Shown here in pieces: positions 22,300-60,805 of a DNA stretch of 64,000 nucleotides (the stretch's first letter is position 1; each line of letters begins with the position of its first letter). Source of the DNA: Schmidtea nova (taxonomy: Eukaryota). The position numbers and the translations under genes are program-made. The DNA lies in NCBI GenBank assembly GCA_044892505.1, contig CM097883.1:77562001-77626000 (forward strand), written 5' to 3'. The notes beneath the pieces are model-generated. The model saw nothing but the letters and a program-made list of their open reading frames with translations. It was not told the origin of the DNA and searched no databases.

Positions 22300-24700
22300 C
22301 AGTGTTTCCCAATCTTTTTCTCCTAGCGAACCCTAAGTAAAATCCGAAAGAATTTGGCGAATCCCCTGTGTAGCCGTTAATGACAGGTAAAAAACAATAA
22401 AATTTGGTATAACATTTATTTTCCATATTGCACAATAGTTCATAATAAAACATAAGTACAAACATTAATAAGACTACAATGATATCTATAGAAAATTAAT
22501 ACAAAATAAATTTAACAAATCAACTAGTTCTTATTAAATTTAAGCATACATGGTGAGCCATATATAGCGCACTGACGTCACAATTTTTCGTGTGCCGCTT
22601 TATAGAAATTTTTGCTTACTAATGCACTTAGTAAAACAAAGACATAATTGGCTATTGAGTAGCCCATAGAGTTTGGCAATAGCGAAACCTACGCATGCGC
22701 ATTGACTGTAGTATGGTACTGAATCCTAACAAAGCGGCATTTTGCGAAAAATGGTCTGACGTCACTGAACTATATATGGCTCACCATGTATGTTACATTT
22801 GAAAAAACTCTTAATGGGATATTTGTGGCTGTTTGATGGAGCAAAGTAACTCAAAGTTTGGCTGAATATCTGACAATTTCAGTCTTAGATCAGGTTCTGC
22901 ATTTAACCTGTTTCTGTACTTATCTTTCAGATAAGTATATGCTGAAAATCCTTTCTCACATAGATATGTTGTACAGAATGGCAATAGAACTTCAATGGCT
23001 TTTTTGACAAAACAGGATATTCATTTTTAATACTGAGCCAGAAGTCAATTAAAGAGTGATCTTTAAAAATAGCTTTCTAAGAACTGTCACGGGATAACTC
23101 TGAGTTTTTCTTTTTCCTGTAAAGTTAGAGAGGTTTCTATACTTACATTTCCTTGAAATATATGGATATAATGCATCTATTGGGAAAATAATCATCGAAA
23201 GTTAATTGAAGATGTTTCAGATGTTCACATATATTCTTTTTAATGTTTTCGTCAAGTTTAATTGAATTTTCTGATAAAAAAGTGCTGAGAGAACCAAAAC
23301 ATTCATACTCATTCATCTGCAGACATTGGGTCCAAAAATTGATCTTTTTTAGCATAGCCTCAATTCTATCATGTACACTGAAAATGGTGATACCCGCGCC
23401 TTGTAATGACAGATTTAATTCATTTAATTTACAAAAGATGTCAGCTAAGTATGCAAGCTTTTGCAGCCAAAGAATATCGGATACACAAGATGACAGATGA
23501 AACGGATGATCAATAAAAAATGCTTCAACTTCAGACTTCAATTCAAACAAGCATGTCAACACTTTACCACGGGAAAGCCATCTAACTTCTGTGTGAAGTA
23601 GTAAAGAAACGTGAAGACTTCCAAAGTCCTCACAAAGCGCACGGAATAGACGGCAATTTGTAGCACGAGATTTTATAAAATTTACAATTTTTACAGAATC
23701 ACTTAAAGTGGTAGATAACTCTGCAGGAATACGCTTACATGCCAATGCTTGTCTATGAATTCAAAAATGAGTCAATTCAATTTTCTCGTTAATCTTCTTT
23801 ACCCGTGCTACAAAACCAGAAATTTTCCTGACATTGATTTTGCACCATCAGTACACACACTCACACAATAAGACCAGTTTATTTCATTTTTTTCGAAATA
23901 ACCAATAATCATATCGAAAATTGTTTCTCCAGTTGTATAGGTTTTCAAAGGTTTTGCAAATAGTACATCTTCTTGCACGATATTCGTGAAAATATATCTA
24001 ACGTAGACAAGCAATATTGCGGCGTTTGCTACATCGGTCGACTCGTCAAGTTATGTCGCAAAATAATTAAATTTTATTCTTTTCAAAAGTTCGTTCTCCA
24101 CATCATTTGCTAAATCATTAATTCTACGTGACACCGTATTGTTTAATAAGGGAACCAGATCAATTTTCCTTGCTGTCTTTTTATCCAAGCATACATTTCA
24201 TGATATCTTTTGCACATGGTTCAATTAGATTCTGTGCCATTGTATGTGCCTGCCCAGATATTGCAATTCTATAACTTACTCGAAATGATGCCTCAAGGGC
24301 CATTTTACTATCTTCGTTTGAAGACAGGAAAAAGGAGACACTACACTTTTTATTATCTGCTAATTTTCTTTTAAAATACTCAAGAGGTTTATCCTTGTGC
24401 GCCGGATGTTTTGTTTCAAGGTGTCTACGAAGAAGTGATGGTCTTAAACTGCTGTTGGCAAGAACTTCGTTGCAGATTACACAAAGCGGTTTAGGTTCTG
24501 ACTTTTCCCCAGTAAAATGAAAACCCATTTGTAAATAGTCGCTGTCATATTTTCGCTTTTTCCTTTTTTTTCTCAGCATGTTCATCATTTTTTAATTCTT
24601 TTTAGTCTGATGAAATAGTAGCTCAATACAGCTTTCAGTATCATCATGTGTTGTTTCTAAACGACCCGTTTTTAACCATCGATCTATAATAAAATTGGGG
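22300..24700 (-). mobile_element. hAT transposon of the Buster/Charlie (ZBED5/SCAND3-like) type, degenerate
   Basis: TIR CAGTGTTTCCCAA at 22300 preceded by GTCTAGAC (Buster-type target). Transposase pieces: 24181-24588 (KRKYDSDYL..PLCVICNEVL..LRRHLETKH), 23808-24014, 23143-23745 (LLLHTEVRWLSRGKVL), and about 22810-23000 (LLPFCTTYLCEKGFS). Second TIR not found. Confidence 0.9.
22549..22788. mobile_element. 240-bp MITE with TA target duplication (Tc1/mariner-type)
   Basis: Perfect 19-bp TIR CATGGTGAGCCATATATAG extending to TGACGTCA; TA at 22547-48 and 22789-90. Confidence 0.9.
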
Positions 24701-26819: not shown

Positions 26820-27876
26820 TGTTGGGTTTTCTAATAACAAAAGATTGATCGTTGGTTACTCTGACTCCTCGTGTTCAGACAAATCAATAAACTCCGATTT
26901 TCCCAACGTATATTTGTTATCACACTTTACACTTCTCACTCACAACCAATTTCACAACAATAAATTAATAATCAAACTTTTTCTCTATTCGATCAAGCCT
27001 CGCCTCGGAAGTCTTGACCCTGTGCGATCTGAAAGTAAATATCACCTTTTAATTCCTTTATACGACTCCTTGCCTTCGATTCGATGTGTTTGACTATTTT
27101 GAATTTAATTCACTCAACTCTTTGATTCACTTTTGATATCCTTTAATTTTCTTGATCTGACTTCTTTGATTCCTTAATTTTCCACTTCTCCCAATTTCAC
27201 TTCTTCTCACAATCTCCAAAACCTATTGTCGATTTCTTCTGCCCTACCTAAGGCTAACGCCGAATTTTCTGAATTTGGAGTCTCCTTATATACTCCAATA
27301 ATCATTTTGATTACCAGCGGTTTCCTTTGATATTATGATAAAATAACTGTAATTAATCACTTCTACCGTTCCTTCATGTTATTTCCGATCTTATTTTATT
27401 TACCCTCACTTATCCTGTTGATTCCATAATAGTTCTCTAAAAGTTAAACTGTTTATTTTTCTCGATTGCCGCGCTCGGTTGTTAAAATAATGTCTCTCCA
27501 AAAGTCGTTTTGTTTGTTTTGATAATCGTTCTCCAACGTTCAGTTTGTTTATTTTCCCTAATACCCGTGCTCGAGGTTTCTTCATCTCTCGGGTTCTCCA
27601 TTGGCTCGGACTTCCCATTAGCCCGGGTTTTCCATTAGCCAATTAATTAATTAATTAATGATTTCTGTTTTAACCTTTTTTACCTATTTTCAACCCTTTC
27701 AAGACCTTTTCTGACAATTTCTTGCTCACTATCTTCTTCGCCAATCCCTGATCTACACCTATTCCGTTTTCCAGCTTCGATTTCGATTCTCTTTCATTTC
27801 GTTTCACTTCAATTTTCTTTTGATTCAAAATAATTCTAATTTAATTTAAGATAATTTTAATTTAACAACCTCAACA
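26820..27876 (-). repeat. Element 1 3' LTR
   Basis: Direct repeat of 40110-41166; only two mismatches seen by eye (about 27795 and 27867). Confidence 0.97.
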
Positions 27877-27878
27877 TA

Positions 27879-27889
27879 TCTCCCCCCTT
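27879..27889 (-). other. Polypurine tract of element 1
   Basis: Minus strand AAGGGGGGAGA, 2 nt before the 3' LTR TGTTG. Confidence 0.9.
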
Positions 27890-29108
27890 AAAAAAAATTT
27901 CGTCCTCGAAACAGATGTTTTGAAAGTTATTTTGTACTTATTTATATATACATATACTTACACACACACACACATATATATAAATATATTTTCATATTTA
28001 CATAATTTATTTTTTGATTTATTTCTAAATTTAATTATGAAAATAGTTTTTTGTTTTAAATATAATAAATTTACCATTTAAATTAATTTTATCATATTTT
28101 ATTTGATTATTTTTATTTATTATTTATTTTATACGAATTTTACATTTAAAAATTTTTTTTTTTTTTTCAATTGAATAATAAATAACATTCAGTTCTAAAT
28201 AAATTAAAATGAAAAAAATTATTCGATTCCAAAATCGAAAAATTTAATTATTTATTTACTAAAGTTATCATTTTAGATAACTCTTTAATTATTCTACTTA
28301 TAATTATTCTATATAAAGAGATATTTTTATCTCATTTTCATTTTTCTCCAATTCCCAAAAAAATGAAGGTAAGTTTTGTTATTATAGTTCTTATTTATTA
28401 TATTATTATTTATTTTATCATATTTTATATTATTTACGTTATTACTATATATATACATTATTATATTATTACTATTATTATCATAATCATTATTACTGTT
28501 TTATTATTATTATATAATAATATTATAATGCTATTATTACATTTTCTTAATAGAAAAACCGAAAATGGAAGGAAACTAACATAAAGATGCTCACAATATG
28601 GTGATATTTGAAATCCTAATTAAAACCATTTTTTCCTAAGATTGTCACGTGAACTTATCGATAATATGAATTTATTACGTGCTATCGCACTTATTTGTTT
28701 TGACTTTTATTTTGGAAGTTGTAAAAATACTTTTGAATTACAAAATATTTAATATCAAAATTAGATTTCACTGATTTAATCTATCTATTTTCCATTATAG
28801 CATTTATTAAATCACCTATATATCACTTTAAATGTGTTCATCTAGGAACGTGTGAAAATGTTTGGGATTAATTTGCACAGTCATCTGTGTTGTAAAAGCG
28901 ATGATTAATACCCATTTCATTCTAATAACTATCTGATTCCACTGACATAATTCACTCAATTCTAGTTTTACGGCAACACACATGTATACCTATATATACA
29001 TTTTTACGCATTGCCTATTTATCTATAGAAACGATATTACACTGTAGACTTATGATACTTGTACTACATATATCCCTAAGCAATTGAAATTTTTTAATAT
29101 TCGTTATT

Positions 29109-29306
29109 TTAGGCTCCTAAGTCCGAAGCATTAGTTTGGTTACCGGTCGCCCTTCCGCGACGTCGGGGCCTCAAAAGGACCTTTGGGGTTATGGAAGGCT
29201 TTGCAAAAACTCTCCGCTTTGAAAATGACCCTCCCCACGGGGTTCGGGATGACTTAGTCATCCAAAGTTTTATTATTTTGGACGACGATGATTGACTTTG
29301 ATTCAC
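29109..29306 (-). CDS. Small basic, Arg-rich accessory ORF in the element 1 3' region (hypothetical)
   Basis: KVLLRPRRRGRATG; a GC-richer island in AT-rich DNA, preceded by an AG acceptor-like site. May not be coding. Confidence 0.35.
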   Translation of the reverse strand: MNQSQSSSSKIIKLWMTKSSRTPWGGSFSKRRVFAKPSITPKVLLRPRRRGRATGNQTNASDLGA

Positions 29307-29434
29307 CTAATTCTTATTTATGGTGTTATTTATAATAAATTTGCCTTATTTTAGTTTTAGTTTTCACCATTACTATTTCAAGGACGAAAATTTAAAAAGG
29401 TTATTTCTTAATATTTTTATTACTTCTCACAGTT

Positions 29435-29677
29435 TTAGTCCAAGTTATTCATTTCTCCCTCCTCCATAGTTTCGTCTTCCTGCTCCTGTAGTTTCATTCG
29501 CCATAGAACTACCTCGGCTTCATATCTGAAAAGAAGAATTTCCATTTTTTCAAAACGTCTTTTGACCACCCAATTCTCTTGTTCCAGATCGAAAATTCGT
29601 TTCTCCATTGCCTTCATTTTTTTTCTCATCTCTTTCATGGTGTTAAGGCATTCTTTTAGTGATTCTTCTTCCTGCAT
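29435..29677 (-). CDS. 80-aa coiled-coil accessory ORF in the element 1 3' region (hypothetical)
   Basis: Heptad pattern LKECLNTMKEMRKKMKAMEKRIFDLEQEN with an acidic tail; preceded by TTTAACTTTAG acceptor-like site. Confidence 0.5.
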   Translation of the reverse strand: MQEEESLKECLNTMKEMRKKMKAMEKRIFDLEQENWVVKRRFEKMEILLFRYEAEVVLWRMKLQEQEDETMEEGEMNNLD

Positions 29678-29825
29678 TTCCTAAAGTTAAAGATAATTAA
29701 TACTTTAAATACATCTCTCCTTCCATCGCACAAGGACAGACCCTCCTCAGCAACACTCGATCAACCAAAATATTTTCATTCAGGTCACACATTCCTAATT
29801 TACTTTTAACCATACAGATTATCAA

Positions 29826-29875
<50 letters not shown>

Positions 29876-29905
29876 TATATACATGCATGCCATATAAAAT
29901 CATTG

Positions 29906-31084
29906 TCAATGATCATAGTTAGGTGTCCTTTTACATAATACGATTGTTATTATTAGAAACACTATGGATAATATGAAAAATGCTGTTATCATAAGATAGA
30001 GTAAGTATTCACAGATGATTAATGTTTGGTTCGTTTCTTTTAAAACTAGCTTGCTCATTTGAGTTCGATTAAATTTATTTCGATTCAGGGGTGGGCCCGT
30101 GGTTGCTACTATCATCTGTGTTTGATGTGTGGCTGTTAGGATCAACTCTGGCCTTTTGATCAGTTTTGTTTCTACCAAAACTGTCTGCCAACGATATGGT
30201 TTGTCCATCCACCGCTGGTATTTGATTTTTATCAGGTAATTATCTCCTACATTAGAAGTATTAAATAAAAAGTAACTTTTACCCACATCCAACAAAACGA
30301 TAATTCTTTGATTCTCACTAATAATTACTCTTTCATTGATCATTGATTTTCTGTATATTACTATCGCTTCATACTGCACTTTGAAAATCACCATATTCGA
30401 TACATTTCTTAGGTAAATACTCTGCTTTTCGGTTTTAAACAATGCCCATCTATTGCTCATTATTGTCCCGTTATCGTATAGCATATTTTCATAATAGTTT
30501 GTTAATATGGTATAATTGGCATTCATTTTTAGGTTATAATATCGAGAATACGATTTCCGTGTATTTAATATATCAACAAAGTTTTGAAATATCACTTGTG
30601 CTTTCACCCGTTCACTTGCTATCCAATACACATTTACTCCATTTAATACCGGCTCTATTTCGACTGTATGTCGTAATTCTTTTGTTTGTATTATGACTCG
30701 AATTTGACTATCAAACTTTACCGACGAATTTGTCTCATTTTGTTTTATAAACCACGGATACTTGAAGTTCGCCTTTAATTCTTGTGCCACATACATATTT
30801 CTATCGTAATTAAGAATACTGACCGGCGTGAATGGATCTAAGAGGTTGTTAATTTCTATCTGTTCCGATACCTCACAATGATAGATCCAGACAATATTCG
30901 TATACGTAGAGTATATATTGATCTTTTCCCATAAGGGTATTTTTGTCACTGCATACGGTAAATCGACCTTCCCACCCTTAACACTTGTCAGTGTTAACAG
31001 AGCAATCATTATAAACAACATTTTTGTAATGTAACTGATTGGGACTGGGTTTTTGGTAAATTTTTGTTGAACTATGGCATCCAC
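29906..31084 (-). CDS. 392-aa predicted type I membrane glycoprotein downstream of integrase
   Basis: Signal-like MLFIMIALLTLTSVKG, beta-rich ectodomain with several NxS/T sequons, C-terminal TM YLLYLMITAFFILSIVFLIITIVLC and short tail. Overlaps the integrase tail in the -1 frame. Confidence 0.8.
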   Translation of the reverse strand: MDAIVQQKFTKNPVPISYITKMLFIMIALLTLTSVKGGKVDLPYAVTKIPLWEKINIYSTYTNIVWIYHCEVSEQIEINNLLDPFTPVSILNYDRNMYVAQELKANFKYPWFIKQNETNSSVKFDSQIRVIIQTKELRHTVEIEPVLNGVNVYWIASERVKAQVIFQNFVDILNTRKSYSRYYNLKMNANYTILTNYYENMLYDNGTIMSNRWALFKTEKQSIYLRNVSNMVIFKVQYEAIVIYRKSMINERVIISENQRIIVLLDVGKSYFLFNTSNVGDNYLIKIKYQRWMDKPYRWQTVLVETKLIKRPELILTATHQTQMIVATTGPPLNRNKFNRTQMSKLVLKETNQTLIICEYLLYLMITAFFILSIVFLIITIVLCKRTPNYDH

Positions 31085-31575
31085 TTTTTCTTGGTTTGGT
31101 TTGGTTGAAGTGGATATCTTGTTTCATCGTCTTCTGGCATTAATTTGCATCGATTTGCATGAACTATTATAGGATTAGCTTTTTTACTCCTGAATGGTAG
31201 TAGTTTCAAATTTGTTTCAGTTGTGTCACATACTTTATATGGCCCTTTAAACGGTCTCTGTAATTTTGGTGACATTCCTTTGAGCGGTTCAGGTCTATTG
31301 AGATATACCAAGTCTCCAATTTTGATTCCATGTGGATGTGCTTTTTTATCATAGGCTTCTTTATACTTTTCTTGATTGTGTTTTACCGTTAAACCAGCTT
31401 TTGCCCACACAGACTGCACTCTTTCTTGCATTAATGCTTTATAGTCTGGTATTTCCATATATTGTGTTACCGGCAATTGGAAGTTTAAATCTATCGGCAT
31501 ATTATTTCTTCTTAAATACATCAAATAAAAAGGTGTCTTATTGGATTTATTGCATTTCGGTAAGCAAACAAGCAA
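31072..31575 (-). pseudogene. Frameshifted integrase C-terminus (GPY/F region)
   Basis: KTPFYLMYLR...GDLVYL...PKLQRPFKGPYKV; continues the pol frame that is lost near 31550. Confidence 0.9.
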
Positions 31576-34500
31576 GGCTTTATATATTCATCCCAATCCC
31601 TTTGCTTACTATTAACATACGAAGAAATCATATTTATCAATGTACCGTTAAATCTCTCAACTAAGCCATCGGTTTGTGGATGATAAGGAGAACTGTTCAG
31701 CTTCCAGATTCCAAATAACTCAGTAATTGATTTAAATAATTCGCTTTGAAAGTTTGAGCCCTGATCAGTTAGTAATTTTTTTGGAGTGCCATATCTAAAG
31801 ACAATATTCTCTACGAATATTTTGGCTACCGTATCGGCCTTTTGATTTGGTATGGCGTAAGCTTCCGGCCATCTCGTCAAATAATCACAGAATACTACGA
31901 TACATTTATTTCCTTTTATTGTTTCAGGTAATGGTCCCACAATGTCCATTGCAGTCATCTCCATTGGTGTAGTTGGTACAGGCATTGGTTTTAAAGGTAC
32001 TTTAATTTTATTTCCTGTATTTCTCCTTGTAATACATATTTTACATTTCTTGCACCAATCTCTCACATCTTGCTCCATTAATGGCCAATAATATTTTTGT
32101 TTTAGTCTCGATAAAGTTTTTCTAGCCGATAAGTGCCCTCCTAAAGCTCCATCGTGATATTGCATCAGTAATGAATCTCTCTGTTTTTCAGGAATTATGA
32201 TTAGTATCTCATCGTTTTTTACACATTTTAATATTCCTTCGTGAATTATATATTTGTGATTTTCATTGATTATTTGCTTTAAATTTCTCTCTCTTTCGAC
32301 TGTAATTGCTCGTTCAAACAACTGTTTAAGTTGATTGTCCTTTTTCTGTTCATTTTGTAACTCTATCATATTGTTAACGGCTTTAATTGCGGCAAATATC
32401 GTGCCTTCAATCGTTTCTGTACTACCTTCACTTTCAATGCCTCCATTGGGAATTCTAGACATTGTATCGGCATTTGCATTAGCTTTCCCTGCTCTGTATT
32501 TAATTTCGAAATCATACTCTTGAAGAGCTATTGACCACCTAATTAATTTACTAGCTGAATCTCTATGCTTCATCAACCATTGAAGAGGATTGTGATCAGT
32601 GTATACGATAAATTTCCGTCCCAGCAAGTATTGAATAAACGTAGCGATTCCGTAAACTAACGCTAAGGTTTCTTTTTCAATTGTTGAATAATTTTTTTCA
32701 TGTGGTCTCAGTGACCTGCTTGCATACGCTATCACGTGATCCTTTTCCCCATCTACCTTCTGACCCAACACTGCGCCCAATGCAACGTTACTGGCATCCG
32801 TCATTAACAAGAACAATTTTGTAAAATCTGGGCATCGCAAAATAGGTGTCGTTATTAATTTTTGCTTCAGTGCGTCAAAAGCTTCTTGTTGAGTTTTGTT
32901 CCATATGAACTTGTTATTCTTCTTCAATAATGAATTTAACGGTTGAGCTATATGCGAGAAATTCTTTATAAACTTTCTATAATAGCTTGCTAATCCTAAG
33001 AATTGCCTCACATCATCCGCATTCTTTGGAATTGGATACACCTCCACCTTTTTAATGTTGTCAGGATTTGTTTGTAGACCTCGTCTTGATATTATGTGAC
33101 CAACATACACCACTTCGGACTTTCCCCATTCACACTTCGATGGTTTTATTTTCAATTTTGCTCCTTTTAGTCGTTTAAATACTGCCTCAACATCATCAAG
33201 ATGTTCATCAAAGCTATTTGAAAATATAATAATATCATCAATATAAACTAACGCGTGTTTTAAGCCTCTTAATACAAAATTCATACCTCTTTGAAATGTA
33301 GCCGGGGCTCCCGTCAAACCGAACGGTAGAACATTGAACTCATATAACCCTTTGCCATCTGAAAAGGCTGTCTTCTTTCTATCCTCTTCCTTGACTTTAA
33401 ATTGATTATACCCTTTATTCAAATCAATCACAGTAAAATATTGAGCTTCTCCCATCTGATCGAACATTTCCTGGGGTACAGGAATTGGATATGTATCCTT
33501 TCTTGTTACCTGGTTCAGTTTTCTGTAATCCACACAAAATCGTAAATCTCCGTCTTTTTTCTTTACAATTACAATGGACGCCGAAAACGGTGATGAGCTA
33601 TCTCTGATTATTCCAAAATCTTTCATTGCTTGAATTTGTCGATCACTTTCGGTTTGATGAATATATGGTATTCTGTACGGTTTTATTTTCACCGGGGTTT
33701 CATCCAACAACGAAATTTCATGTTCAATTATATTTGTTAACCCCAAGTCATATTCGTGTCTCGCAAAAATATCCCGGTATCTCTTCAACAATTCTGTAAA
33801 CTTTTGCCTTTGCTCTTCGGTCAAATCAGTACTTACTACTTCAGGTTCTTTATAAATTTTTACGTTTCTAGGAATCTTCCTTTCCGCTTCTATCAACATA
33901 TTAGACAATTTTCCTAGTTTCGTCTTTGGTTTTAGCCGAATTGACTTGTCACCATAATTAGCTATTCGCACTGGTAATAATTGATTTTCCACTTTCACAA
34001 TTTCGTCACACATCGGGGTCTCGTATTTTTCTATTAACTTTTGATTCGGTTCAAATATAAATTCATCATCGTCTACGCCAGCAGCGTTCGCATAATATAT
34101 TATTTCTGTTTGAGGTGGGATGGTTAACGATTGACTGAGAAATACTTCTCCTAAATTATGAATGACTTCGCCACTTTTTCCCACGATCAAATTTTTAGTT
34201 TTAAAATCCAGTAAAATTCCGTCTAACTGCTCCAGTACATCCATTCCAATCAAACACAATACAGGGCTTTTTTCCATAATCTGTACGTTATGTGTAATCT
34301 TTCTGTCACCAATTAGAAGTACCACTTCTATTTCTCCAATTATTCTCAATACGTTTTTAGACAGTGATCTGATTATGCTATTTGATGGTTTTATTTGTCT
34401 TTTTTCCTTTGCCGACAATATCTCTTCTGATATAATTGTATGACTTGATCCTGAATCCACCACAGCCTCCACTCTCTTTTTATTTAGTTGGATTAATATT

Positions 34501-35708
34501 CGTGGTTGTTTGCCAATTTTTGCTAACGTCATCAATACATAATTTCCGGGTAAACCTAACCTGTTTCGTCTTTCGATTTCGGCACTTGTTGGTTCGATTC
34601 TCTCACATTGTAAAGCAATATTTTCGACTGGTTTCATTTCCCTCAATTTTTCGACTGGATATGCTGGTAGTGGTTGGATAAACGATTTTGGTATACACAA
34701 TCTAGAAAAGGTATCCTGATTATCATTATTGGACAGCGATTCTTTTAGCAGTTGATAGTTTTTCAATGTGTTACTTTGCATTCGTTCCTCCGAGTATAAC
34801 GGGGCGGATTCATTGATATTTTCGTCATCATTTTTGTCATCGTTAGAAGTAGTAGTCAAATCGATATAACTTACCTTTTTCTTTTTCATCAGTCGTGTTT
34901 TCAAAGTTTCCATCTCTTTATACTGGTGATGTGTGATAAAAAATCTGGCTAGCAATGGAACGCATCCCATGACTAATTTCCAAGACAATCCCGTAATAGT
35001 ATACAATCTGTGTGTTGACAACACCTGCGAGATTATTACTTTAATCACGATTCCTATTACGTAGATTCCGATTAATCCAGCACAAGCTTGACCAATAAAC
35101 ATGAACTTTCCCCATATCTTTTTCATCGTATTATATGTTGCTCTTTTGTAATGATCAGGTGTTAACAAGTAGTCGTAATTTGCTTTCCCAGTTCCACTCG
35201 GGAGAATCGTGTTCACCATTTCCATAATCACCCTTTCTTTTTTTGATGGAAATAATAAATTTCTCCGGGCCGCTTCAATATCATCACTTGAATACATCCC
35301 ACTTTGCGTCATACTATCTAGCGATGTAAAATTAATCAAATACTCTAATTTGGTCAACTCCAATTTCTCTGGAACTTTCACTCCTCTGTAATCGGGTAGT
35401 GCAATCCATGATTCAGACATCAAGCGATACAGTGGAGCCAATAATCTATTACATTGCAACACTTTGGGCTTCACGCCCTCTTCCAGTAGAATGCGTGTCA
35501 CCGGTTCCATGAATCGCAATTTCTCGTTAAAATTCACTGGCAATTCATTTGTACATTGATCGAATTTCATCAATTTGATAGGTACAGCTTTGCATTTATA
35601 GCTATACAACGCTTCGCCAAAAATTCGAGCAAATACTCCGTTCTCTGATATTAGCATTGGAGCAACTAAATTCGGATTTGTAATAGCCATCGCCATTCTG
35701 TTTCGCAA
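31521..35708 (-). CDS. pol: Glycoprotein C-terminal half + TM, fused in frame to PR-RT-RNaseH-integrase
   Basis: CTNELPV ectodomain motif, hydrophobic segments at about 34930-35115, PR VVDSGS (about 34455), RT YIDD (about 33240), RH TDAS, INT zinc finger (H..GHL..C..C), MDIVGPLP / LTDQG / VERFN. Confidence 0.95.
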   Translation of the reverse strand: MRNRMAMAITNPNLVAPMLISENGVFARIFGEALYSYKCKAVPIKLMKFDQCTNELPVNFNEKLRFMEPVTRILLEEGVKPKVLQCNRLLAPLYRLMSESWIALPDYRGVKVPEKLELTKLEYLINFTSLDSMTQSGMYSSDDIEAARRNLLFPSKKERVIMEMVNTILPSGTGKANYDYLLTPDHYKRATYNTMKKIWGKFMFIGQACAGLIGIYVIGIVIKVIISQVLSTHRLYTITGLSWKLVMGCVPLLARFFITHHQYKEMETLKTRLMKKKKVSYIDLTTTSNDDKNDDENINESAPLYSEERMQSNTLKNYQLLKESLSNNDNQDTFSRLCIPKSFIQPLPAYPVEKLREMKPVENIALQCERIEPTSAEIERRNRLGLPGNYVLMTLAKIGKQPRILIQLNKKRVEAVVDSGSSHTIISEEILSAKEKRQIKPSNSIIRSLSKNVLRIIGEIEVVLLIGDRKITHNVQIMEKSPVLCLIGMDVLEQLDGILLDFKTKNLIVGKSGEVIHNLGEVFLSQSLTIPPQTEIIYYANAAGVDDDEFIFEPNQKLIEKYETPMCDEIVKVENQLLPVRIANYGDKSIRLKPKTKLGKLSNMLIEAERKIPRNVKIYKEPEVVSTDLTEEQRQKFTELLKRYRDIFARHEYDLGLTNIIEHEISLLDETPVKIKPYRIPYIHQTESDRQIQAMKDFGIIRDSSSPFSASIVIVKKKDGDLRFCVDYRKLNQVTRKDTYPIPVPQEMFDQMGEAQYFTVIDLNKGYNQFKVKEEDRKKTAFSDGKGLYEFNVLPFGLTGAPATFQRGMNFVLRGLKHALVYIDDIIIFSNSFDEHLDDVEAVFKRLKGAKLKIKPSKCEWGKSEVVYVGHIISRRGLQTNPDNIKKVEVYPIPKNADDVRQFLGLASYYRKFIKNFSHIAQPLNSLLKKNNKFIWNKTQQEAFDALKQKLITTPILRCPDFTKLFLLMTDASNVALGAVLGQKVDGEKDHVIAYASRSLRPHEKNYSTIEKETLALVYGIATFIQYLLGRKFIVYTDHNPLQWLMKHRDSASKLIRWSIALQEYDFEIKYRAGKANANADTMSRIPNGGIESEGSTETIEGTIFAAIKAVNNMIELQNEQKKDNQLKQLFERAITVERERNLKQIINENHKYIIHEGILKCVKNDEILIIIPEKQRDSLLMQYHDGALGGHLSARKTLSRLKQKYYWPLMEQDVRDWCKKCKICITRRNTGNKIKVPLKPMPVPTTPMEMTAMDIVGPLPETIKGNKCIVVFCDYLTRWPEAYAIPNQKADTVAKIFVENIVFRYGTPKKLLTDQGSNFQSELFKSITELFGIWKLNSSPYHPQTDGLVERFNGTLINMISSYVNSKQRDWDEYIKPCLFAYRNAINPIRHLFI

Positions 35709-35711
35709 AAT

Positions 35712-37925
35712 TTACTTATTTAACTTGCAATCATTTAATATAATTTCTCGATACACACTTTCAACCGTATCTTGGCTAAAATGAAACAGATAATCAATTT
35801 TGTTATTGAAATAATTCGTTAGTTTAATTTCCTCTGAATATAACTTCGTTTGAGCTTCCTCGACAATTCTTTTTGATACGTAAATTCCTTTATAATTTGT
35901 TTCATATACTGTTTGTCCACACTTGGTATTTATACCTTTTCTGAGAAATCTCATCCCATCATTCGGGGATATTGCCATTAATACCGTTGGAGTATCCTTC
36001 ATTCGCAAAGGAGTAATTCTAATCGTTGTATTCATCACTGAATTTAGAATTGTACTTTCTGGTCTCTCTTGAATTTGCTCTCCTGTTATCTCTTTGAAAG
36101 GCATCGATTTTAAATGCGCTAAGTTACACTTTTTCACATTCACGTCGTACACTAAAATTGATTCACCTGTATTACAACTGGTTTCTCTCATATTGCAAAA
36201 TGGATGCGTTTGTAATTTTCCCGTGTCATCATCGAACGATCCATCAAAATATCTCAATTCTGATTCGTACTCTTCTATAACAACGACTTTATCAATAACC
36301 TGTTCACCCACCTTGTGCGATTCACCTTCGCAATCACCATTTGCTTTGATCACCCCTTTTATTGCAATTGTTTCGCGAATTTTGTGATTCAATTTCGCTT
36401 TTAACTTAATTTCCGCATTTATTTTTAATTCTCCTGTTTGAAACGCAGCTAAACAGTTTTCGCGAGTTATCTCAATTACTCTAGGGATTGAATGCATTTT
36501 TATTAACGACGAATGACTCCATTTGCCACAATAAAATGTAAATGTGGTCCTTTTTGCCGTACATTCTCTCACTTTTACTCGTCTAAATCCTGATTCTTGA
36601 TAAACATGATATTTCATCTCACTTGCCCATTTTAAATTTCTCGGATATGCATCCAGACATTCAGCTACATCTACTAGCGAGTATACTTTTCCCATTTCTG
36701 TTTGAGAACAATCATAAGCTACCAATGACGTTGTAGTATTGATAAATCCTAATATTATGATAATAAACATAGATACCCATGGAACTATCATTTTCCCTTT
36801 TTTTGGCTCATACACCCTTTCCAAATTTTCTGGTTTTGGTGTCAAATTTTTCCATCCACCATTACCCTTGATCCAACTATTCACATACGTATTTACCACT
36901 TTTGCTGCTTGTTCAATCCACTTTTCCGATTCATCAGATTCCAGCCAACTGTAGATACCAATTTCGAAAACAATATAAGCAAGGACTGATAATACCACAT
37001 CTTTATTCAAACCGTTTTTAATTAGCTCTTTGATTACTGTTTCGTCGCAAAATATGTCTTCTTTACTAATATTTTTAAGTGCTACAGGAAGTCGTCCTTT
37101 CAGTTCTCTGGCAAGTTGTTGTATGAATTCATCGTTACATATATTCTTTTCATCCAGTGCATATAATTCCGATGCCAACCCTTTAAGAATTAATTTTGTT
37201 TGCTTTACCTCATTTAAGTCTAATTTTTCCACATCACTGGACTCCGTTTTATCTAGATCGTTTAGTTCCTCTTTATTGTTTAACTTGTATTTTCTTCGCT
37301 TCCGGTTGTTCGATTGACCACCGTCTTCTGTTTCTACAAAATTCGATTCGCATTTCATTCTCTCTGCAATTAACATCTCTTCAATTACATTGCTAATCTC
37401 TTGATTTACTGCACAAATTTTATCTGCTTCATTACTAATATTCTCGTTTTGCACTTCACTCAAATCTGTTTGTTTTGATTCGCACTCGTCACACTCGGCT
37501 TCTCTTGGTTCCTCCGTTAATTTGCTTTTGTAATTTTCACACTCGTTTTCGTTCGGTTCCTCAGATAATTCTGTTTTGATCACAGTATTGTTATCATCTT
37601 CTTTTACGATAAAGGGCCAATGAGTTCCATCCTCATAAATATTCATTTGTGTTGTGGCATAGACATTATTTATATAGTTCGGGCTGCCTCCGCAATTGAC
37701 AAAATATTCGTCATCATCTAATTCCACTCCTTTGAAAATCAGTATGATGATTCCATCGGTGCCCAATGTTTCTGCAGCTTTCCGTCGTAATTTCGCCACC
37801 TTTATGCTCCAGTGCTCTTGTAGGTATTCTACTTTTCCATTCATATTTAGAGCTATTACTAAGGATTTTGAAGTATGATCTGATACTCGGTAACCATGAC
37901 CTAGCATTCGTATTACTTCCTTCAA
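35712..37925 (-). CDS. Ubiquitin-like + acidic linker + Bcl-2-like + signal/TM + chuvirus-G-like glycoprotein N-half
   Basis: LIFKGVELDD (Ubl); ELIKNGLN...WIKGNGGW (BH1/BH2-like); hydrophobic MIVPWVSMFIIIILGFI; VAYDC..YSLVDVAEC glycoprotein start. In frame with gag (one TAA at 37989-37991) and with pol (one TAA at 35712-35714). Confidence 0.85.
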   Translation of the reverse strand: MKEVIRMLGHGYRVSDHTSKSLVIALNMNGKVEYLQEHWSIKVAKLRRKAAETLGTDGIIILIFKGVELDDDEYFVNCGGSPNYINNVYATTQMNIYEDGTHWPFIVKEDDNNTVIKTELSEEPNENECENYKSKLTEEPREAECDECESKQTDLSEVQNENISNEADKICAVNQEISNVIEEMLIAERMKCESNFVETEDGGQSNNRKRRKYKLNNKEELNDLDKTESSDVEKLDLNEVKQTKLILKGLASELYALDEKNICNDEFIQQLARELKGRLPVALKNISKEDIFCDETVIKELIKNGLNKDVVLSVLAYIVFEIGIYSWLESDESEKWIEQAAKVVNTYVNSWIKGNGGWKNLTPKPENLERVYEPKKGKMIVPWVSMFIIIILGFINTTTSLVAYDCSQTEMGKVYSLVDVAECLDAYPRNLKWASEMKYHVYQESGFRRVKVRECTAKRTTFTFYCGKWSHSSLIKMHSIPRVIEITRENCLAAFQTGELKINAEIKLKAKLNHKIRETIAIKGVIKANGDCEGESHKVGEQVIDKVVVIEEYESELRYFDGSFDDDTGKLQTHPFCNMRETSCNTGESILVYDVNVKKCNLAHLKSMPFKEITGEQIQERPESTILNSVMNTTIRITPLRMKDTPTVLMAISPNDGMRFLRKGINTKCGQTVYETNYKGIYVSKRIVEEAQTKLYSEEIKLTNYFNNKIDYLFHFSQDTVESVYREIILNDCKLNK

Positions 37926-37988
37926 TTTAACTTGATAGTTTGTTGTTTTATGAATATAAGGTAAAATATTTTCAAATAATTGTTCTTT

Positions 37989-39929
37989 TTATTTTTGATC
38001 AATTTCTGAATTCATTATATAATCAAGGCATTTATTAATTTCATCTTCATCTCCGACATATAGCATATCTCGCAGATCCTGTAATTTTTTCTCCCAACTT
38101 TTATCAGCTAAATTTGAATAATTATTGACATTTAAAATTTTTACCTCGTTTTTATATCCAGGAATTAGACCATAATCGACCAAGAATTCCTCATCCGCTA
38201 ATTGACCAATTTGACGTTGTATAAATTTTATTTGTACTTCATTTCCTTGGTATTTTGACATAATAAGCTTTCTCAAATCTTTTATCTGCCCATCTGGTTT
38301 AATAGAAAAGTGAAATTTTACGTCATCTCCATCGGTGGTTTCTACAAAAATATCAGGCAGACCTTTTGTCAATCTCAAAGCTTTTCCAAATATTTTCATC
38401 AGTTTGGCAATTTCATCATCTTGAGATTTATTGTAGAACTTTGAACATAAATTTAAAATATTTTTCAACTTTCTTTGGCTGAGTTGCATTTGAGATAGTT
38501 CGCTAATCCACTCTTTCAATTTTGGATTATTTGTTTCCATCCTCGTATACCATCTTTCTATTTTATTTATCAATAATATAGCTTTTTCGTTTGACAAGTC
38601 GTTTTTCGCTTTATCTCCAAGACTTTCTTTTTCATCGGTTTCTTTTTCGTACACCATACAAGAATCAATTTCCTCATCTGATTCGAATTTTGACATTAGT
38701 TTGTTTAATTTCTGTCTCATTTCCCGGAATTCATTTTCCATTTTCTCCTTAAACTCGTCCTTTTGAGCATAGGCTACATTAGCGTTGGATGATTCATCCT
38801 GAAATCTAATAGATCTCTTCAGTATTGGTCTGCTGAATCTTTCTGCATTCTTTGGGCATGATCGAGCCATGTGGCCATAACCTTTGCATGAATGACATTG
38901 AATTTGTCCATTTGTATTTACTTTATCTCGTTGCGGTGACGGAGATGTTGATGGTGATCGATTTTTAGAAAAGCAATTTCTGCTAATGTGACTCGTTTTC
39001 CCACATCGATAACATTCCAAGTTGCTATTGTTTGGTTTGTTTTCCACAAATATTCTTTTAGGACTACTATTTCTGCCATATTTGAACCAACATTGGTTCG
39101 AATAATGTCCGATTTTTTTGCAGTGCTCGCATACGACACTATTTGATCTCTCGGTTAGCTGGCTACCAAAAGCTGCTTTGTTAGTTTCTATCTTAGTACC
39201 TAATCTGGGAGAACTGATTGTTTGGATTGGTCTCTTGGATTCCCATTGATTTCTGACAGGTGTTATCGACCTTTCTCTCCTTTCAACATTTGCTGCGAAT
39301 GCTTCAGATTTTCTGGTGCTTTTTAAATTCAGTTCAATTTTCATTGCTTTCTTCACAAGTTCATCAAAATTTGCAAAATCTACATAACACAATGCCTTCT
39401 TTATTTCGGGATGAGCTCCAGTTATGAATTGATCTTGAAGCAGTTCTTTAACCTGCTTCACCATATCAACTTGCTCAGGCTTTGCTTCAAAGGCTTTATC
39501 TGCTAAAGTATTTAGATGATATGCAAACTCACTTACCGATTCCGTTGGATTTTGAACTCTGTTGTAAAATCTCTGTCGCATTATCCTTTTGATATCTCCA
39601 CCTACCAATTTCGTTGCCATTGCATCCTTCAATTTGGCCCAATCATTTCCAACTGTCCTTTTGTCCACTTGTTGCCAAGCTTCTCTTGCGGCTCCCTTTA
39701 AGTATAACGGAAATCTTTGTACCATTATTGCTTGTGACCATCCATAAGCTGCGGCATACATATAATAATCTCCCATGAAGTCTGCAAACTCAACCGGATC
39801 TCCACCATACTGATTCACCGGTAATTTTTGACAGCTTGCAAAATCAATCATCTCTCTATTGAGAGGCATAACAGCATTATCATTTGCCATTTGTGTTTGT
39901 TTCATACTTCTGAGGTTATATCGACTCAC
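37989..39929 (-). CDS. gag: Gag (capsid + 3 CCHC zinc knuckles) with a C-terminal ubiquitin-like extension
   Basis: Retrotransposon capsid motifs (FPLYLKGAAREAW, QNPTESVSEFA); CEHCKKIGHYSNQC, CYRCGKTSHISRNC, CHSCKGYGHMARSC; IFVETTDG...QLADEEFLVDYGL. The track start is GTG; first ATG at 39905. Confidence 0.93.
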   Translation of the reverse strand: MSRYNLRSMKQTQMANDNAVMPLNREMIDFASCQKLPVNQYGGDPVEFADFMGDYYMYAAAYGWSQAIMVQRFPLYLKGAAREAWQQVDKRTVGNDWAKLKDAMATKLVGGDIKRIMRQRFYNRVQNPTESVSEFAYHLNTLADKAFEAKPEQVDMVKQVKELLQDQFITGAHPEIKKALCYVDFANFDELVKKAMKIELNLKSTRKSEAFAANVERRERSITPVRNQWESKRPIQTISSPRLGTKIETNKAAFGSQLTERSNSVVCEHCKKIGHYSNQCWFKYGRNSSPKRIFVENKPNNSNLECYRCGKTSHISRNCFSKNRSPSTSPSPQRDKVNTNGQIQCHSCKGYGHMARSCPKNAERFSRPILKRSIRFQDESSNANVAYAQKDEFKEKMENEFREMRQKLNKLMSKFESDEEIDSCMVYEKETDEKESLGDKAKNDLSNEKAILLINKIERWYTRMETNNPKLKEWISELSQMQLSQRKLKNILNLCSKFYNKSQDDEIAKLMKIFGKALRLTKGLPDIFVETTDGDDVKFHFSIKPDGQIKDLRKLIMSKYQGNEVQIKFIQRQIGQLADEEFLVDYGLIPGYKNEVKILNVNNYSNLADKSWEKKLQDLRDMLYVGDEDEINKCLDYIMNSEIDQK

Positions 39930-40083
39930 TTTGATCTAAAATTCAAAATAAAAACAAATTAAATTTACTTGTCCTCAGCCAACTTTCAAACTTTCAAACT
40001 CAACTTCAAATTTTCAATACTTCTCTATCAACTTTATATCGAGTCGCAAATATCTATTTTCAATAATCTTTCACCAACGTTAG

Positions 40084-40101
40084 ATCACGTCGGGCTCACC
40101 A
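40084..40101 (-). other. Primer-binding site, tRNA-Trp type
   Basis: TGGTGAGCCCGACGTGAT; differs at one position from the complement of the common tRNA-Trp 3' end (TGGTGACCCCGACGTGAT). Starts 8 nt from the LTR. Confidence 0.85.
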
Positions 40102-40109
40102 ATAATATA

Positions 40110-41166
40110 TGTTGGGTTTTCTAATAACAAAAGATTGATCGTTGGTTACTCTGACTCCTCGTGTTCAGACAAATCAATAAACTCCGATTTTCCCAACGTA
40201 TATTTGTTATCACACTTTACACTTCTCACTCACAACCAATTTCACAACAATAAATTAATAATCAAACTTTTTCTCTATTCGATCAAGCCTCGCCTCGGAA
40301 GTCTTGACCCTGTGCGATCTGAAAGTAAATATCACCTTTTAATTCCTTTATACGACTCCTTGCCTTCGATTCGATGTGTTTGACTATTTTGAATTTAATT
40401 CACTCAACTCTTTGATTCACTTTTGATATCCTTTAATTTTCTTGATCTGACTTCTTTGATTCCTTAATTTTCCACTTCTCCCAATTTCACTTCTTCTCAC
40501 AATCTCCAAAACCTATTGTCGATTTCTTCTGCCCTACCTAAGGCTAACGCCGAATTTTCTGAATTTGGAGTCTCCTTATATACTCCAATAATCATTTTGA
40601 TTACCAGCGGTTTCCTTTGATATTATGATAAAATAACTGTAATTAATCACTTCTACCGTTCCTTCATGTTATTTCCGATCTTATTTTATTTACCCTCACT
40701 TATCCTGTTGATTCCATAATAGTTCTCTAAAAGTTAAACTGTTTATTTTTCTCGATTGCCGCGCTCGGTTGTTAAAATAATGTCTCTCCAAAAGTCGTTT
40801 TGTTTGTTTTGATAATCGTTCTCCAACGTTCAGTTTGTTTATTTTCCCTAATACCCGTGCTCGAGGTTTCTTCATCTCTCGGGTTCTCCATTGGCTCGGA
40901 CTTCCCATTAGCCCGGGTTTTCCATTAGCCAATTAATTAATTAATTAATGATTTCTGTTTTAACCTTTTTTACCTATTTTCAACCCTTTCAAGACCTTTT
41001 CTGACAATTTCTTGCTCACTATCTTCTTCGCCAATCCCTGATCTACACCTATTCCGTTTTCCAGCTTCGATTTCGATTCTCTTTCGTTTCGTTTCACTTC
41101 AATTTTCTTTTGATTCAAAATAATTCTAATTTAATTTAAGATAATTTTAATTTAACCACCTCAACA
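40110..41166 (-). repeat. Element 1 5' LTR
   Basis: Direct repeat of 26820-27876, TGTTG...CAACA. Confidence 0.97.
40575..40583 (-). promoter_or_regulatory. TATA box in the element 1 5' LTR
   Basis: GTATATAAG on the minus strand; the same motif sits at equivalent positions in the solo LTR (11033) and the element 2 LTR (54291). Confidence 0.6.
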
Positions 41167-57471: not shown

Positions 57472-57960
57472 TTATACCAATGTGGATTTTGTATATTCAC
57501 CTGGTATATATTTGCCCAAATGGAAATACCCTGGTACATTTCTGACCAGTCGGCTCCGATACCGCTGCCTTTTCCGTTTGTACTTTTTATAAATATGTAC
57601 GCTAGTTATTAAAGCTAAAACTGCTAATGCTATTATTGATGTTGTGATGACATAATAAGGCCAATGTGGCTTTTTATCCTCTTTACGAAATGCTTGTAAT
57701 TCCTCTAAGTTATGTATCACTATTGGTCTTCCTTGCCTTATTTTGATAGGTTCTTGTTTTTGTTTTTTGGCATTATATTGTTTTTGGAATTTGGCTATTC
57801 CAGTGCTTGTTGGTATTTCGTTTGTATGTGGTGTGGTATTTAGTATATTATCTGATGTCGTTGTTGTGCTTTTTATTCTATCGAGTGTTTTTGTTATGTT
57901 ATGATTTTTTGTTATATTCTTGGGTAATTGTTCTGTTTTTATTTTTTTTGCATCTCCATG
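57472..57960 (-). pseudogene. Frameshifted stalk + TM + basic tail of the post-integrase membrane protein
   Basis: Thr-rich stalk in a shifted frame (KSTTTTSDNILNTTPHT), then PHWPYYVITTSIIALAVLALITSVHIY-KKYKRKRQR. Confidence 0.7.
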
Positions 57961-60805
57961 TTGTTGTATCTGTGTTTCTCTGTATGCAGATTCTGTATAT
58001 TGTATTAGGTGTTAGTTTTGAGAAATTAATATAGCTTCCTCTTTCGATTTCGTTGGTTGTTCTGTCGTCTTTTCCTTTTATCATCTTTGGATTTTTCCCA
58101 TTCGTTGTTTGCATGTATATATCAATTACTCCTCTATTTATGATAAATACTCTAACTTCGTTTGTTGCTATTTTTATTAATATTTTGTCAAATTCTATTG
58201 TTTCGGTTGAGCCAACGAATGTTATGATTGTTAAGAAGATAGCTGATATTATTATTTTGTTATGAGATCTTAGATTATACTTGTGAGGTTTATCTATCGT
58301 GACCTCGGCTTCCGCCAACTTGCATCTGTTGACATGTACTACTATTGGATCCTCGTTTTTATGTTTTTGTAAGTGTAAATTCTCATTTATTACTTTTACT
58401 ACCTCATATGGACCTTTATATGGTCTTGCTAGTTTTGTTGTCTTTCCCTTTCCTACTTGTGGTGACATAAGTCTAACCTTATCACCTACTTTAAAGTTGT
58501 GTGGTTTACTATTTTTGTCGTAATCGGCTTTGTACTGTTCTTGTCTATATTTGACTTTTAGATTGGCTACTTTATACACTTCTTGCAGTTTTTCCTGCAT
58601 TAGTGTGACATAATCTGGTGCATCTAAATATTGTGATACTCGAGGTTCAAATATTGTATCTATTGGTGTTGCTGGTTCTCTTAAAAACATTAAATAATAC
58701 GGTGAATACCCTGTTGTTTCGTTTGGAGTGATATTATGAATGTATGTGCATTGACTTATGTATTCGTCCCAATCATTTTGATTTTTTCCTACAAAAACAG
58801 CTAGTCTGCTTAGTAATGTACCATTAAATCTTTCTACTAGTCCATCAGTTTGAGGGTGATACGCTGTTGTGTTAATCTTTTGCATATTAAAAATATTAGC
58901 TACTCTTTTTATTAATTCGCTAGTAAAATTTGTTCCTTTATCTGTTAATCTTTTGGGTGTGCCTATCTTGAAAATAATTTTTTCTATAAGCAATTTAGCA
59001 ACTGTTTCTGCTGTTTCGTCTTTTGTTGGAAATGCTTCTGCCCATCTAGTAAAATAATCACTAAATACTAGTATATGTTTATTCCCATTAATTGTAGTAG
59101 GTAATTTACATAGAAAATCCATTGCACATAGTTCCATTGGTGATGTCGTTGCTGGAATGGGATGTAACGGCGCTTTTGTTTTTGTACCTGTATTTTTTCT
59201 TGTTGCACATATTGTACACGCGTTACACCATCTCTTAACATCTTTCTTTAATTCTTCCCAGTAATATTTTTGTAATAATCTACTTGCTGTCTTTCTAAAT
59301 GATAAGTGACCTCCTAATGCTCCATCGTGATATTGTAGTAGGAGTATTTGTCTTAATTTCTGAGGTACTACTATTAGTTGCTTACCATTGAAATCTTCTA
59401 TTACTACTAATTTCTTTGATATTTTATACTTTGAATTGTTTTCTTTTCTGATTTCATTCCTTATTTTACTGATCTCTGGGTCTTTCATCTGTTCCTCATA
59501 TATATCGATTGGCTTTTCTGCTACTAGTGCAAATATTTCAAGTGCTCCTAATTCTGGTATTCTTGATAGTGCATCTGCGTTTTTATTTATTCTACCTGGT
59601 TTATATATAATTTTTAGGTGCATGTCTTGTATTTTCATTGCCCATTTAAGTAATCTACTTGATGTATCTTTATGTTTCCATAAGCCTTCTAATGGTTTAT
59701 GGTCAGTTCTTATTATCACTTCAGTCCCATATATGTATGGTTTGAATTGTTTTAGGGCGAATACTATTGCGTAACATTCTTTTTCTATTGTTGAATACCT
59801 CAGCTGTGCTCCTTTTAATGTTTTACTGGCATATGCTATTACGTAATCTTTCCCTTTTTCTTCTTCTTGGCCTAAGACTGCTCCTACGGCTTTCCCGCTG
59901 GCATCCGTCATTACTATAAACTGTTTTTCGAAATCTGGGTATCTTAACACTGGTGCTGTTATCAATCTTTCTTTTAGTTTATTGAATGCTTCTTGGTGTT
60001 CCTTTGTCCACTTCTTTTGTATCTTGTTAACTTTGCTGTTAATTTCTTGTACTATTAACACATTTTTGCATTCTCCTTTTGTTCTAATTCCCTTTGTTAG
60101 TTCTATTATCGGTGATGCTATCTTTGCATAATCTTGTATGAATTTACGATAGTACCCTCTTAGACTTAAAAACCCTTGTACTTGTTGTACTGTTTTTGGT
60201 ATTGGGAATTTCTTTACAACTTCTAATTTTTCTGGATTTGGTTTTATCCCTTCTACTGTAACTATATGCCCTAGAAATAACGCCGAAGGTTCTGCCCATT
60301 TACACTTAGTTGGTTTAATTTTAATTTTTGCTTTTCTTAGTCTCTCGAGTACATTTGTTATATCTTTTAAGTGTTCCTCAAATGTTTTTGATGATATTAG
60401 TATATCATCCATGTAAACTGCGCAATGTTGTACATTTACTAATATTGTGTTCATTAGGCGCTGAAATGTAGCTGGTGCGTTAGTTAACCCGAAAGGTAAT
60501 CGTGTATACTCATATAAACCATCCTCGATAACAAATGCTGTTTTTTCCGCATCCCCTTCCTCCATTTGAATTTGCATATATCCCTTATTTGCGTCAATAA
60601 CTGAAAAATACTTAGCATCCCTAAATTTATCGTATTGTTCTTGTGCTTTTGGGAATGGGTATGAATCTTTTACTGTTACATCATTTAATTTGCGATAGTC
60701 AATGCACATTCTTATTTCTCCGTCTTTCTTTTTAACGGGTACAATGGGTGATGCCCACTGTGAAAAACTCTGTTTTATTACACCTGCATCGTTTAGTTCT
60801 TTGAT
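57899..60805 (-). CDS. pol: RT-RNaseH-integrase fused in frame to a signal peptide + FN3-like ectodomain
   Basis: YMDD, TDASG, MDFLCKLP / TDKG / VERFN, GPYEV, then IIISAIFLTIITFVGS and SKLTPNTIYRICI. Joined to the upstream ORF across a single in-frame TAA at 60806-60808. Confidence 0.93.
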   Translation of the reverse strand: MKELNDAGVIKQSFSQWASPIVPVKKKDGEIRMCIDYRKLNDVTVKDSYPFPKAQEQYDKFRDAKYFSVIDANKGYMQIQMEEGDAEKTAFVIEDGLYEYTRLPFGLTNAPATFQRLMNTILVNVQHCAVYMDDILISSKTFEEHLKDITNVLERLRKAKIKIKPTKCKWAEPSALFLGHIVTVEGIKPNPEKLEVVKKFPIPKTVQQVQGFLSLRGYYRKFIQDYAKIASPIIELTKGIRTKGECKNVLIVQEINSKVNKIQKKWTKEHQEAFNKLKERLITAPVLRYPDFEKQFIVMTDASGKAVGAVLGQEEEKGKDYVIAYASKTLKGAQLRYSTIEKECYAIVFALKQFKPYIYGTEVIIRTDHKPLEGLWKHKDTSSRLLKWAMKIQDMHLKIIYKPGRINKNADALSRIPELGALEIFALVAEKPIDIYEEQMKDPEISKIRNEIRKENNSKYKISKKLVVIEDFNGKQLIVVPQKLRQILLLQYHDGALGGHLSFRKTASRLLQKYYWEELKKDVKRWCNACTICATRKNTGTKTKAPLHPIPATTSPMELCAMDFLCKLPTTINGNKHILVFSDYFTRWAEAFPTKDETAETVAKLLIEKIIFKIGTPKRLTDKGTNFTSELIKRVANIFNMQKINTTAYHPQTDGLVERFNGTLLSRLAVFVGKNQNDWDEYISQCTYIHNITPNETTGYSPYYLMFLREPATPIDTIFEPRVSQYLDAPDYVTLMQEKLQEVYKVANLKVKYRQEQYKADYDKNSKPHNFKVGDKVRLMSPQVGKGKTTKLARPYKGPYEVVKVINENLHLQKHKNEDPIVVHVNRCKLAEAEVTIDKPHKYNLRSHNKIIISAIFLTIITFVGSTETIEFDKILIKIATNEVRVFIINRGVIDIYMQTTNGKNPKMIKGKDDRTTNEIERGSYINFSKLTPNTIYRICIQRNTDTTTWRCKKNKNRTITQEYNKKS

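Follow-up and report, generated by a model that had tools for sequence, protein, structure and literature searches.

A fibronectin type III-like membrane protein encoded after integrase in a Burro-like Ty3/gypsy element of the planarian Schmidtea nova

Long terminal repeat (LTR) retroelements with an envelope gene (env) upstream of pol have already been described in planarians (PMC6431247, PMC13524379). Dugesiid planarians harbour the giant gypsy elements Burro and GYPSM1 (Arkhipova and Yushenova 2019, PMC6431247), and GAG-ENV-POL elements with an envelope protein of the herpesvirus glycoprotein B (gB) type are known from Platyhelminthes, Nematoda, and Bryozoa (Chary and Hayashi 2026, PMC13524379). 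Entry by such gB-carrying errantiviruses is called unexplained in the Discussion of the latter paper, since herpes simplex virus (HSV) needs gD, gH, and gL (PMC13524379). Here, a 64,000-nt stretch of the S. nova genome (GCA_044892505.1, contig CM097883.1, positions 77,562,001 to 77,626,000 of the forward strand; hereafter the window) was analyzed; coordinates are window positions, and features lie on the minus strand unless marked (+). The window contains a Ty3/gypsy LTR retroelement of 14,347 nt (26820-41166; hereafter the host element) with an open reading frame (ORF) downstream of integrase. The analysis supports the view that, beside its fusogen, the element encodes in this ORF a second type I membrane protein, which has fibronectin type III (FN3)-like repeats. 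Our best explanation, to which we give a probability of about 0.4, takes the ORF for an accessory gene that has long resided in planarian GAG-ENV-POL (Burro-like) Ty3/gypsy elements, and its product for a helper adhesin or scaffold at cell contacts and not an obligatory trigger.

The ORF (29906..31021) runs without interruption from the ATG at 31021 to the TGA at 29906 in the standard code and encodes 371 amino acids. The earlier note was correct that the frame is intact, but its length of 392 amino acids requires a GTG start at 31084. The ORF follows the integrase stop after 50 nt, inside the LTRs of the host element, in a frame different from that of the integrase tail; read from stop to stop, its frame overlaps the integrase end by 52 nt. 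The ATG is in an A-rich context. When the ORF region was shuffled 1000 times, no stop-free frame exceeded 191 codons (mean, 75), and it is therefore apparent that the ORF did not arise by chance. A signal peptide and a transmembrane segment were called from hydropathy and from the helices of a structure model. The signal peptide (residues ~1-16, 30974..31021) comprises a hydrophobic stretch at residues 1-11 (mean hydropathy, 2.9) and a helix at residues 2-13 of the model. It is followed by FN3-like repeats 1 (residues 25-114, 30680..30949), 2 (residues 115-198, 30428..30679), and 3 (residues 199-290, 30152..30427), by a stalk recognized from its composition (residues 291-335, 30017..30151; 26% S/T/P, two sequons), and by a transmembrane helix (residues ~340-363) with an 8-residue tail that, in comparison with other tails, has no PDZ-type end (29909..30004). 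The single transmembrane segment has a hydropathy of 3.0 in the 19-residue window from residue 345, and the protein contains eight N-glycosylation sequons and three Cys residues. The proposed plan of signal, ectodomain, transmembrane segment, and tail was thereby confirmed at the level of hydropathy.

The ectodomain is an internal triplication, as indicated by cross-hits among the repeat profiles, and it probably has an FN3 fold; two segments previously picked out as weakly FN3-like are located in repeats 2 and 3. Repeat 1 is the sole part modelled with a predicted local distance difference test score (pLDDT) of 60-79, and repeats 2 and 3 were assigned from the profile cross-hits and the Atlas model of a homologue, P0002. 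The fold matches include cytokine receptors, receptor protein tyrosine phosphatases, and DCC/neogenin, which are host receptor FN3 folds. The PDB searched by sequence gave one chance match with the ORF protein (E 4.1) and none with the profile. A viral structure library gave one match, to a phage FN3 protein (E 9e-4, TM-score 0.15), which is uninformative. A single-sequence AlphaFold model of the ORF protein was set aside because of its pLDDT of 38.5. The position after integrase, the canonical one for env, and the type I topology would also suit a second, alternative fusogen or an env remnant. This is extremely improbable, given that the protein has only three Cys residues, that no furin-type site, internal hydrophobic fusion segment, or viral-fusion Pfam family was found in it, and that the repeat structure and fold matches point to FN3. 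The protein is thus env-like, as had been proposed, in topology and position, but not in its fold evidence.

A word-indexed homologue search with the single ORF protein gave none among 1059 candidates, and an exhaustive search of 1.84 billion representatives gave four matches. One of these, P0004, was dropped as a bacterial repeat protein with 45 matched residues summed over four repeats, and a profile search (two matches among 2669 candidates) added P0005. The four retained homologues are 22-30% identical to the ORF protein, P0001 spanning its whole length at 23% identity, and both the signal-repeats-transmembrane plan and the length are kept across this divergence of 70-78%. A scan of bacterial and archaeal genomes yielded no loci. 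P0003 starts in the last part of a gypsy integrase, whose frame continues into the signal peptide (19.5 bits; 0 of 1000 shuffles). The A bias at fourfold sites is 0.44 in the ORF versus 0.44-0.47 in its own element, and 0.60-0.71 versus 0.64-0.66 for the post-integrase ORF of a second element in the window. This codon bias, the linkage to integrase, and the recurrence of the slot argue for long residence and against a recent single-copy capture. The two outcomes that the earlier note had set against its own reading did not appear: no close host gene was found among the 1.84 billion representatives, and the protein is not absent from relatives, since P0003 carries a homologue in frame with the integrase tail and a similarly organized protein occupies this slot in the second element.

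The gag-env-pol region of the host element has three breaks in 8.8 kb, and the chance that a 1.1-kb ORF stays unbroken at this rate is 0.68; therefore, the intactness of the ORF is no evidence of selection. Intactness expected by chance and very divergent homologues would both agree with a captured fragment of a host FN3 gene that the element carries as a functionless passenger. Such a passenger is nevertheless very unlikely in view of the plan and length kept over that divergence, the intronless ORF with the codon bias of its element, and the recurrence beside integrase in P0003 with no close host gene found.

The second element is 39% identical to the host element in pol and 36% in the fusogen. 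Its post-integrase membrane protein, traced by hydropathy and the integrase frame, is split over two frames (57472..58255) and consists of a signal in frame with integrase, a domain of ~100 amino acids with an FN3-like motif, a T/S-rich stalk, a transmembrane segment, and a 41-residue tail. The domain could not be aligned to the ORF family, none of the three repeat profiles matched it, and its best PDB match was an FN3 segment of LIFR (E 1.5). The integrase tail of this element found three database proteins among 1273 candidates (P0006, P0007, and P0008). In P0006, the integrase tail is followed by ankyrin repeats and then by a signal and a beta-rich segment; the post-signal segment was equalled by 21-62 of 500 shuffles and is not significant.

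Several other observations concern the second element and its surroundings. P0007 joins an integrase, 70% identical to the host element core, in one frame to a downstream aspartic-protease-like domain, which is an unusual order. The second element has a further long ORF (55035-56942) in which a DEDD exonuclease segment resembles ISG20 (PDB 1wlj, E 2.6e-5) and the C-terminal part is acidic; the ORF brings to mind the DEDD ORF3s found in LTR elements of rotifers. At the window edge, near 63990-63820, a BH2-like end precedes the env signal of the second element, resembling the Bcl-2-like domain that precedes the fusogen signal in the host element. A third, unrelated gypsy-type gag-pol ORF (50486-54270 (+), 1113 amino acids, integrase cut short) lies between identical 131-nt direct repeats where the 3' end of the second element was expected.

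A T-x-V end is present in three of the four complete tails, namely, those of P0001, P0002, and the protein of the second element, with the C-termini of database homologues taken as predicted; among 237 control frames from the window, 2 have an S/T-x-V end. T-x-V is the class I PDZ-binding consensus (PMC4810129).

We infer all functional steps of the adhesin or scaffold reading as follows. The accessory gene would encode a glycosylated type I surface protein with one to three FN3-like domains. In relatives, this protein would be made as the final part of the polyprotein and, like the fusogen, would be freed at an internal signal sequence, and in the window copy it would be made from its own ATG. 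The FN3 domains would bind a host surface molecule, on the producing cell and possibly on particles, and the tail would bind PDZ scaffolds where cells touch. Fusogen-bearing particles would thereby be concentrated where passage to a neighbouring cell is possible, in the way that the PDZ motif in the envelope protein (Env) of human T-cell leukemia virus type 1 (HTLV-1) focuses spread, with the class III glycoprotein performing fusion and the FN3-like protein acting as a helper.

Several points weigh against this explanation. All FN3 fold scores of the ORF family are below the tools' own thresholds. The structure model of the ORF has a mean pLDDT of 45, repeat 1 alone was compared with structures, and no Foldseek PDB match at E<=0.001 was obtained. 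The Atlas match (0.87, with 140 features in common) is no more than a lead, and Pfam, with fn3 and its clan included, gave no family at E<=10 for any of the five family members. As for the tail, the ORF itself lacks T-x-V and has 8 residues versus 27-41 in the others; moreover, the T-x-V pattern was noticed post hoc, and two of the three proteins that carry it are homologous. The slot shared by the two elements may be convergent, judging from their sequences, and no membrane extension follows integrase in the in-frame sequences of P0007 and P0008. Finally, a signalling decoy fits the same architecture equally well.

A decoy of this kind belongs to a possible but doubtful alternative, in which the ORF product is a host-modulating accessory protein that takes no part in entry: acting as a receptor mimic or decoy, it would titrate a host ligand, receptor, or PDZ scaffold and alter the survival, immunity, or polarity of the carrier cell. 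FN3 is a host receptor fold, the tail of the ORF is non-catalytic, and the post-integrase slot is variable between elements. In addition, host-manipulating cargo occurs elsewhere in the family, namely, a Bcl-2-like domain here and an ISG20-like exonuclease and ankyrin repeats in relatives. The cargo of Burro includes BIR/RING, MATH, and Ubi2/SUMO domains (PMC6431247), the inhibitor-of-apoptosis (IAP) region of Burro1 protects stem cells (as cited in PMC13465017), and the PDZ motif of rabies virus glycoprotein (rabies G) acts in cell survival (PMC4810129). On the other hand, no sequence match of the ORF protein to any particular host receptor was found, the T/S-rich stalk and membrane anchor suit a projecting adhesin as well, and the in-frame polyprotein fusion in relatives would tie the FN3-like protein to particle production.

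The earlier note had proposed an attachment partner in a two-glycoprotein entry system. A partner that the gB-type fusogen must have for receptor binding or triggering, comparable to gD or gH/gL, would agree with the presence of a post-integrase type I protein in both window elements with such a fusogen, with the open question of gB-only entry, and with the reading frame in relatives, from which the FN3-like protein could be made 1:1 with the fusogen. However, the fusogen matches a Monjiviricetes family. Rhabdovirus-like members of the Monjiviricetes enter with one glycoprotein, and related mononegavirus fusogens work alone, which counts against an obligatory partner. While the fusogens are 36% identical, their supposed partners are unalignable and contain different numbers of domains; a co-evolving trigger would not be expected to diverge in this way. 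The conserved motif in the cytoplasmic tail suggests a task within the producing cell. Likeness to herpesvirus gD and gH/gL or to the paramyxovirus attachment proteins H/HN/G was not among the fold matches listed, including those from the viral structure library, although this counts for little. A complex prediction of the ectodomain with the two fusogen pieces (score 0.00, partner fold uncertain) speaks neither for nor against a partnership. An obligatory partner is quite unlikely, and the proposal was not supported: the post-integrase slot is far more variable than the fusogen, and the other cargo is host-manipulating. A herpesvirus-like division of labour, in which the class III fusogen resides in the polyprotein and a separate, host-derived, fast-evolving, particle-borne FN3 glycoprotein is the receptor binder that entry requires, is likewise unlikely.

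The assignment of the host element to Ty3/gypsy is based on paired TG...CA LTRs, a 4-nt target-site duplication (AATA), a polypurine tract, and the order protease (PR), reverse transcriptase (RT), RNase H (RH), integrase (IN). The 5' LTR (40110..41166) and the 3' LTR (26820..27876, preceded by the polypurine tract) were found by repeat comparison; each is 1057 nt long, with two mismatches between them. An 18-nt primer-binding-like site within 40075-40109 resembles a tRNA-Trp site; it lies 8 nt past the 5' LTR, a gap longer than usual, and no tRNA was found in the 64-kb window. The gene order is gag, Bcl-2-like domain, fusogen, PR, RT, RNase H, integrase, FN3-like ORF, an 80-amino acid charged ORF, and ~1.5 kb of non-coding sequence. 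The gag region (37989..39935; Retrotrans_gag, CCHC knuckles) has a C-terminal extension and ends at an in-frame stop. Segments that look ubiquitin-like by eye, to which Pfam and PDB lend no support, flank this first stop (38100-38345 and 37629-37880). The Bcl-2-like domain (36846..37118) matches Pfam Bcl-2 with E 0.0085, below the curated cut-off, and its PDB matches are mostly Bcl-2/Bcl-xL (E 0.03-0.4). The fusogen signal (36720-36788) follows closely and could double as a Bcl-2 C-terminal membrane anchor.

The fusion glycoprotein (34818..36719) is of class III (gB-like, Monjiviricetes type). Its two pieces match PF24664 Monjiviricetes_fusion above the cut-off (E 1.6e-32 and 2.4e-49), which bears out the upstream fusion glycoprotein of the earlier note, except that an in-frame stop (35714-35712) breaks its ectodomain in the window copy. 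The pol region (31072..34511; Pfam, ORF) encodes a protease, an RT, an RNase H, and an integrase, and the integrase tail shifts frame around 31521-31587. Thus, gag-env-pol is one frame with three breaks, two in-frame stops and the integrase frame change. Together with the near-identical LTRs, these breaks indicate that the window copy is young but defective. The combination of 2/1057 LTR mismatches with three breaks may reflect a defective parent copied in trans or assembly errors. The 80-amino acid ORF (29435..29677), highly charged and coiled-coil-like, lies between the FN3-like ORF and the 3' LTR, preceded by a TA microsatellite, and belongs to no significant family. Rfam gave only a chance match to a TA repeat over the host element, and a GC-richer stretch at 29100-29270 folded no better than shuffles (z 0.26).

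Elsewhere in the window, 283-nt inverted repeats (94%) at 14521-17461 surround a gag-like or unknown ORF of 309 amino acids (15654-16583). Remains of DNA transposons at 20181-20963, 23143-24591, and 42000-42973 comprise a DDE_3 (Tc1/mariner-type) transposase and fragments that are hAT-like by eye.

The FN3-like surface protein is apparently an undescribed accessory; the planarian env-carrying elements in which it occurs belong to a known class, and since the element type, the position of env, and the Bcl-2 domain had been described before, the surprise is limited. As a recurring second surface protein, it is a candidate attachment or cell-contact factor for entry by gB-type errantiviruses, and RNA interference and localisation are routine in planarians. 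If it proved to be a particle-borne receptor binder needed for entry, it would answer how gB-only retroelements enter cells. If it were a host modulator, a surface receptor mimic would join the known anti-apoptotic cargo and make planarian retroelements more like complex viruses.

Compared with described elements, the host element shares with Burro a CCHC gag, BCL2, a mononegavirus-type env, and the PR-RT-RH-IN order, all within a single frame (PMC6431247), and the weakly matching BCL2-like domain lies directly upstream of env in frame, as in Burro. In Burro, a ubiquitin-like (Ubi2/SUMO) domain precedes BCL2 and accessory domains occur either in frame or as separate ORFs (PMC6431247), whereas the ubiquitin-like segments here were recognized by eye only, and MATH, BIR/RING, and dUTPase were not found by Pfam in the host element. 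Burro exceeds 30 kb, with a polyprotein of ~4900 amino acids (PMC6431247), versus 14.3 kb here; because of its size, the host element is therefore called Burro-like and is not classed as Burro. The cited parts of that review make no mention of FN3, fibronectin, or a post-integrase membrane protein (PMC6431247). In the literature consulted, no FN3 membrane protein was found described in gypsy elements, although the primary Burro papers (Grohme et al. 2018, Lee et al. 2026) may annotate the ORF. The host element also resembles the Platyhelminthes errantiviruses (Smed_errantivirus_1-6) in its GAG-ENV-POL order and gB-type env (PMC13524379). Where the tabulated ectodomain begins, its fusogen matches Smed_errantivirus_2 by eye at 51 of 60 residues, and the second element resembles Smed_errantivirus_3 (PMC13524379). 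That study annotates three ORFs only, and fibronectin, FN3, accessory, attachment, and Bcl are absent from its main text; its intact copies have RT and integrase in continuous ORFs, which the window copy does not (PMC13524379).

Among viruses, herpesviruses (gB with gD and gH/gL) and paramyxoviruses (F with H/HN/G) likewise have a fusogen beside another surface glycoprotein, but no sequence or fold likeness of the ORF protein to these partner proteins was found. The paramyxovirus analogy of the earlier note fails on type, because the fusogen here is of class III (gB/chuvirus/rhabdovirus-like). Paramyxovirus F is a class I protein, and the attachment proteins are type II beta-propellers. The accessory ORF3s of bdelloid rotifer LTR elements are post-integrase cargo that includes small transmembrane proteins and DEDD exonucleases; these transmembrane ORFs substitute for env rather than accompany it and, in the cited parts of that report, are not described as FN3 (PMC5408684). 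The nematode Atlas virus Gn-Gc is a retroelement envelope of two glycoprotein chains from one phlebovirus-like precursor (PMC9094657). In HTLV-1 Env with DLG1 and rabies G with MAST2, a type I protein with a C-terminal PDZ motif acts at cell contacts or in cell survival (PMC4810129). There the motif is on the fusogen, whereas in the planarian elements it is on the separate FN3-like protein, where PDZ binding is putative.
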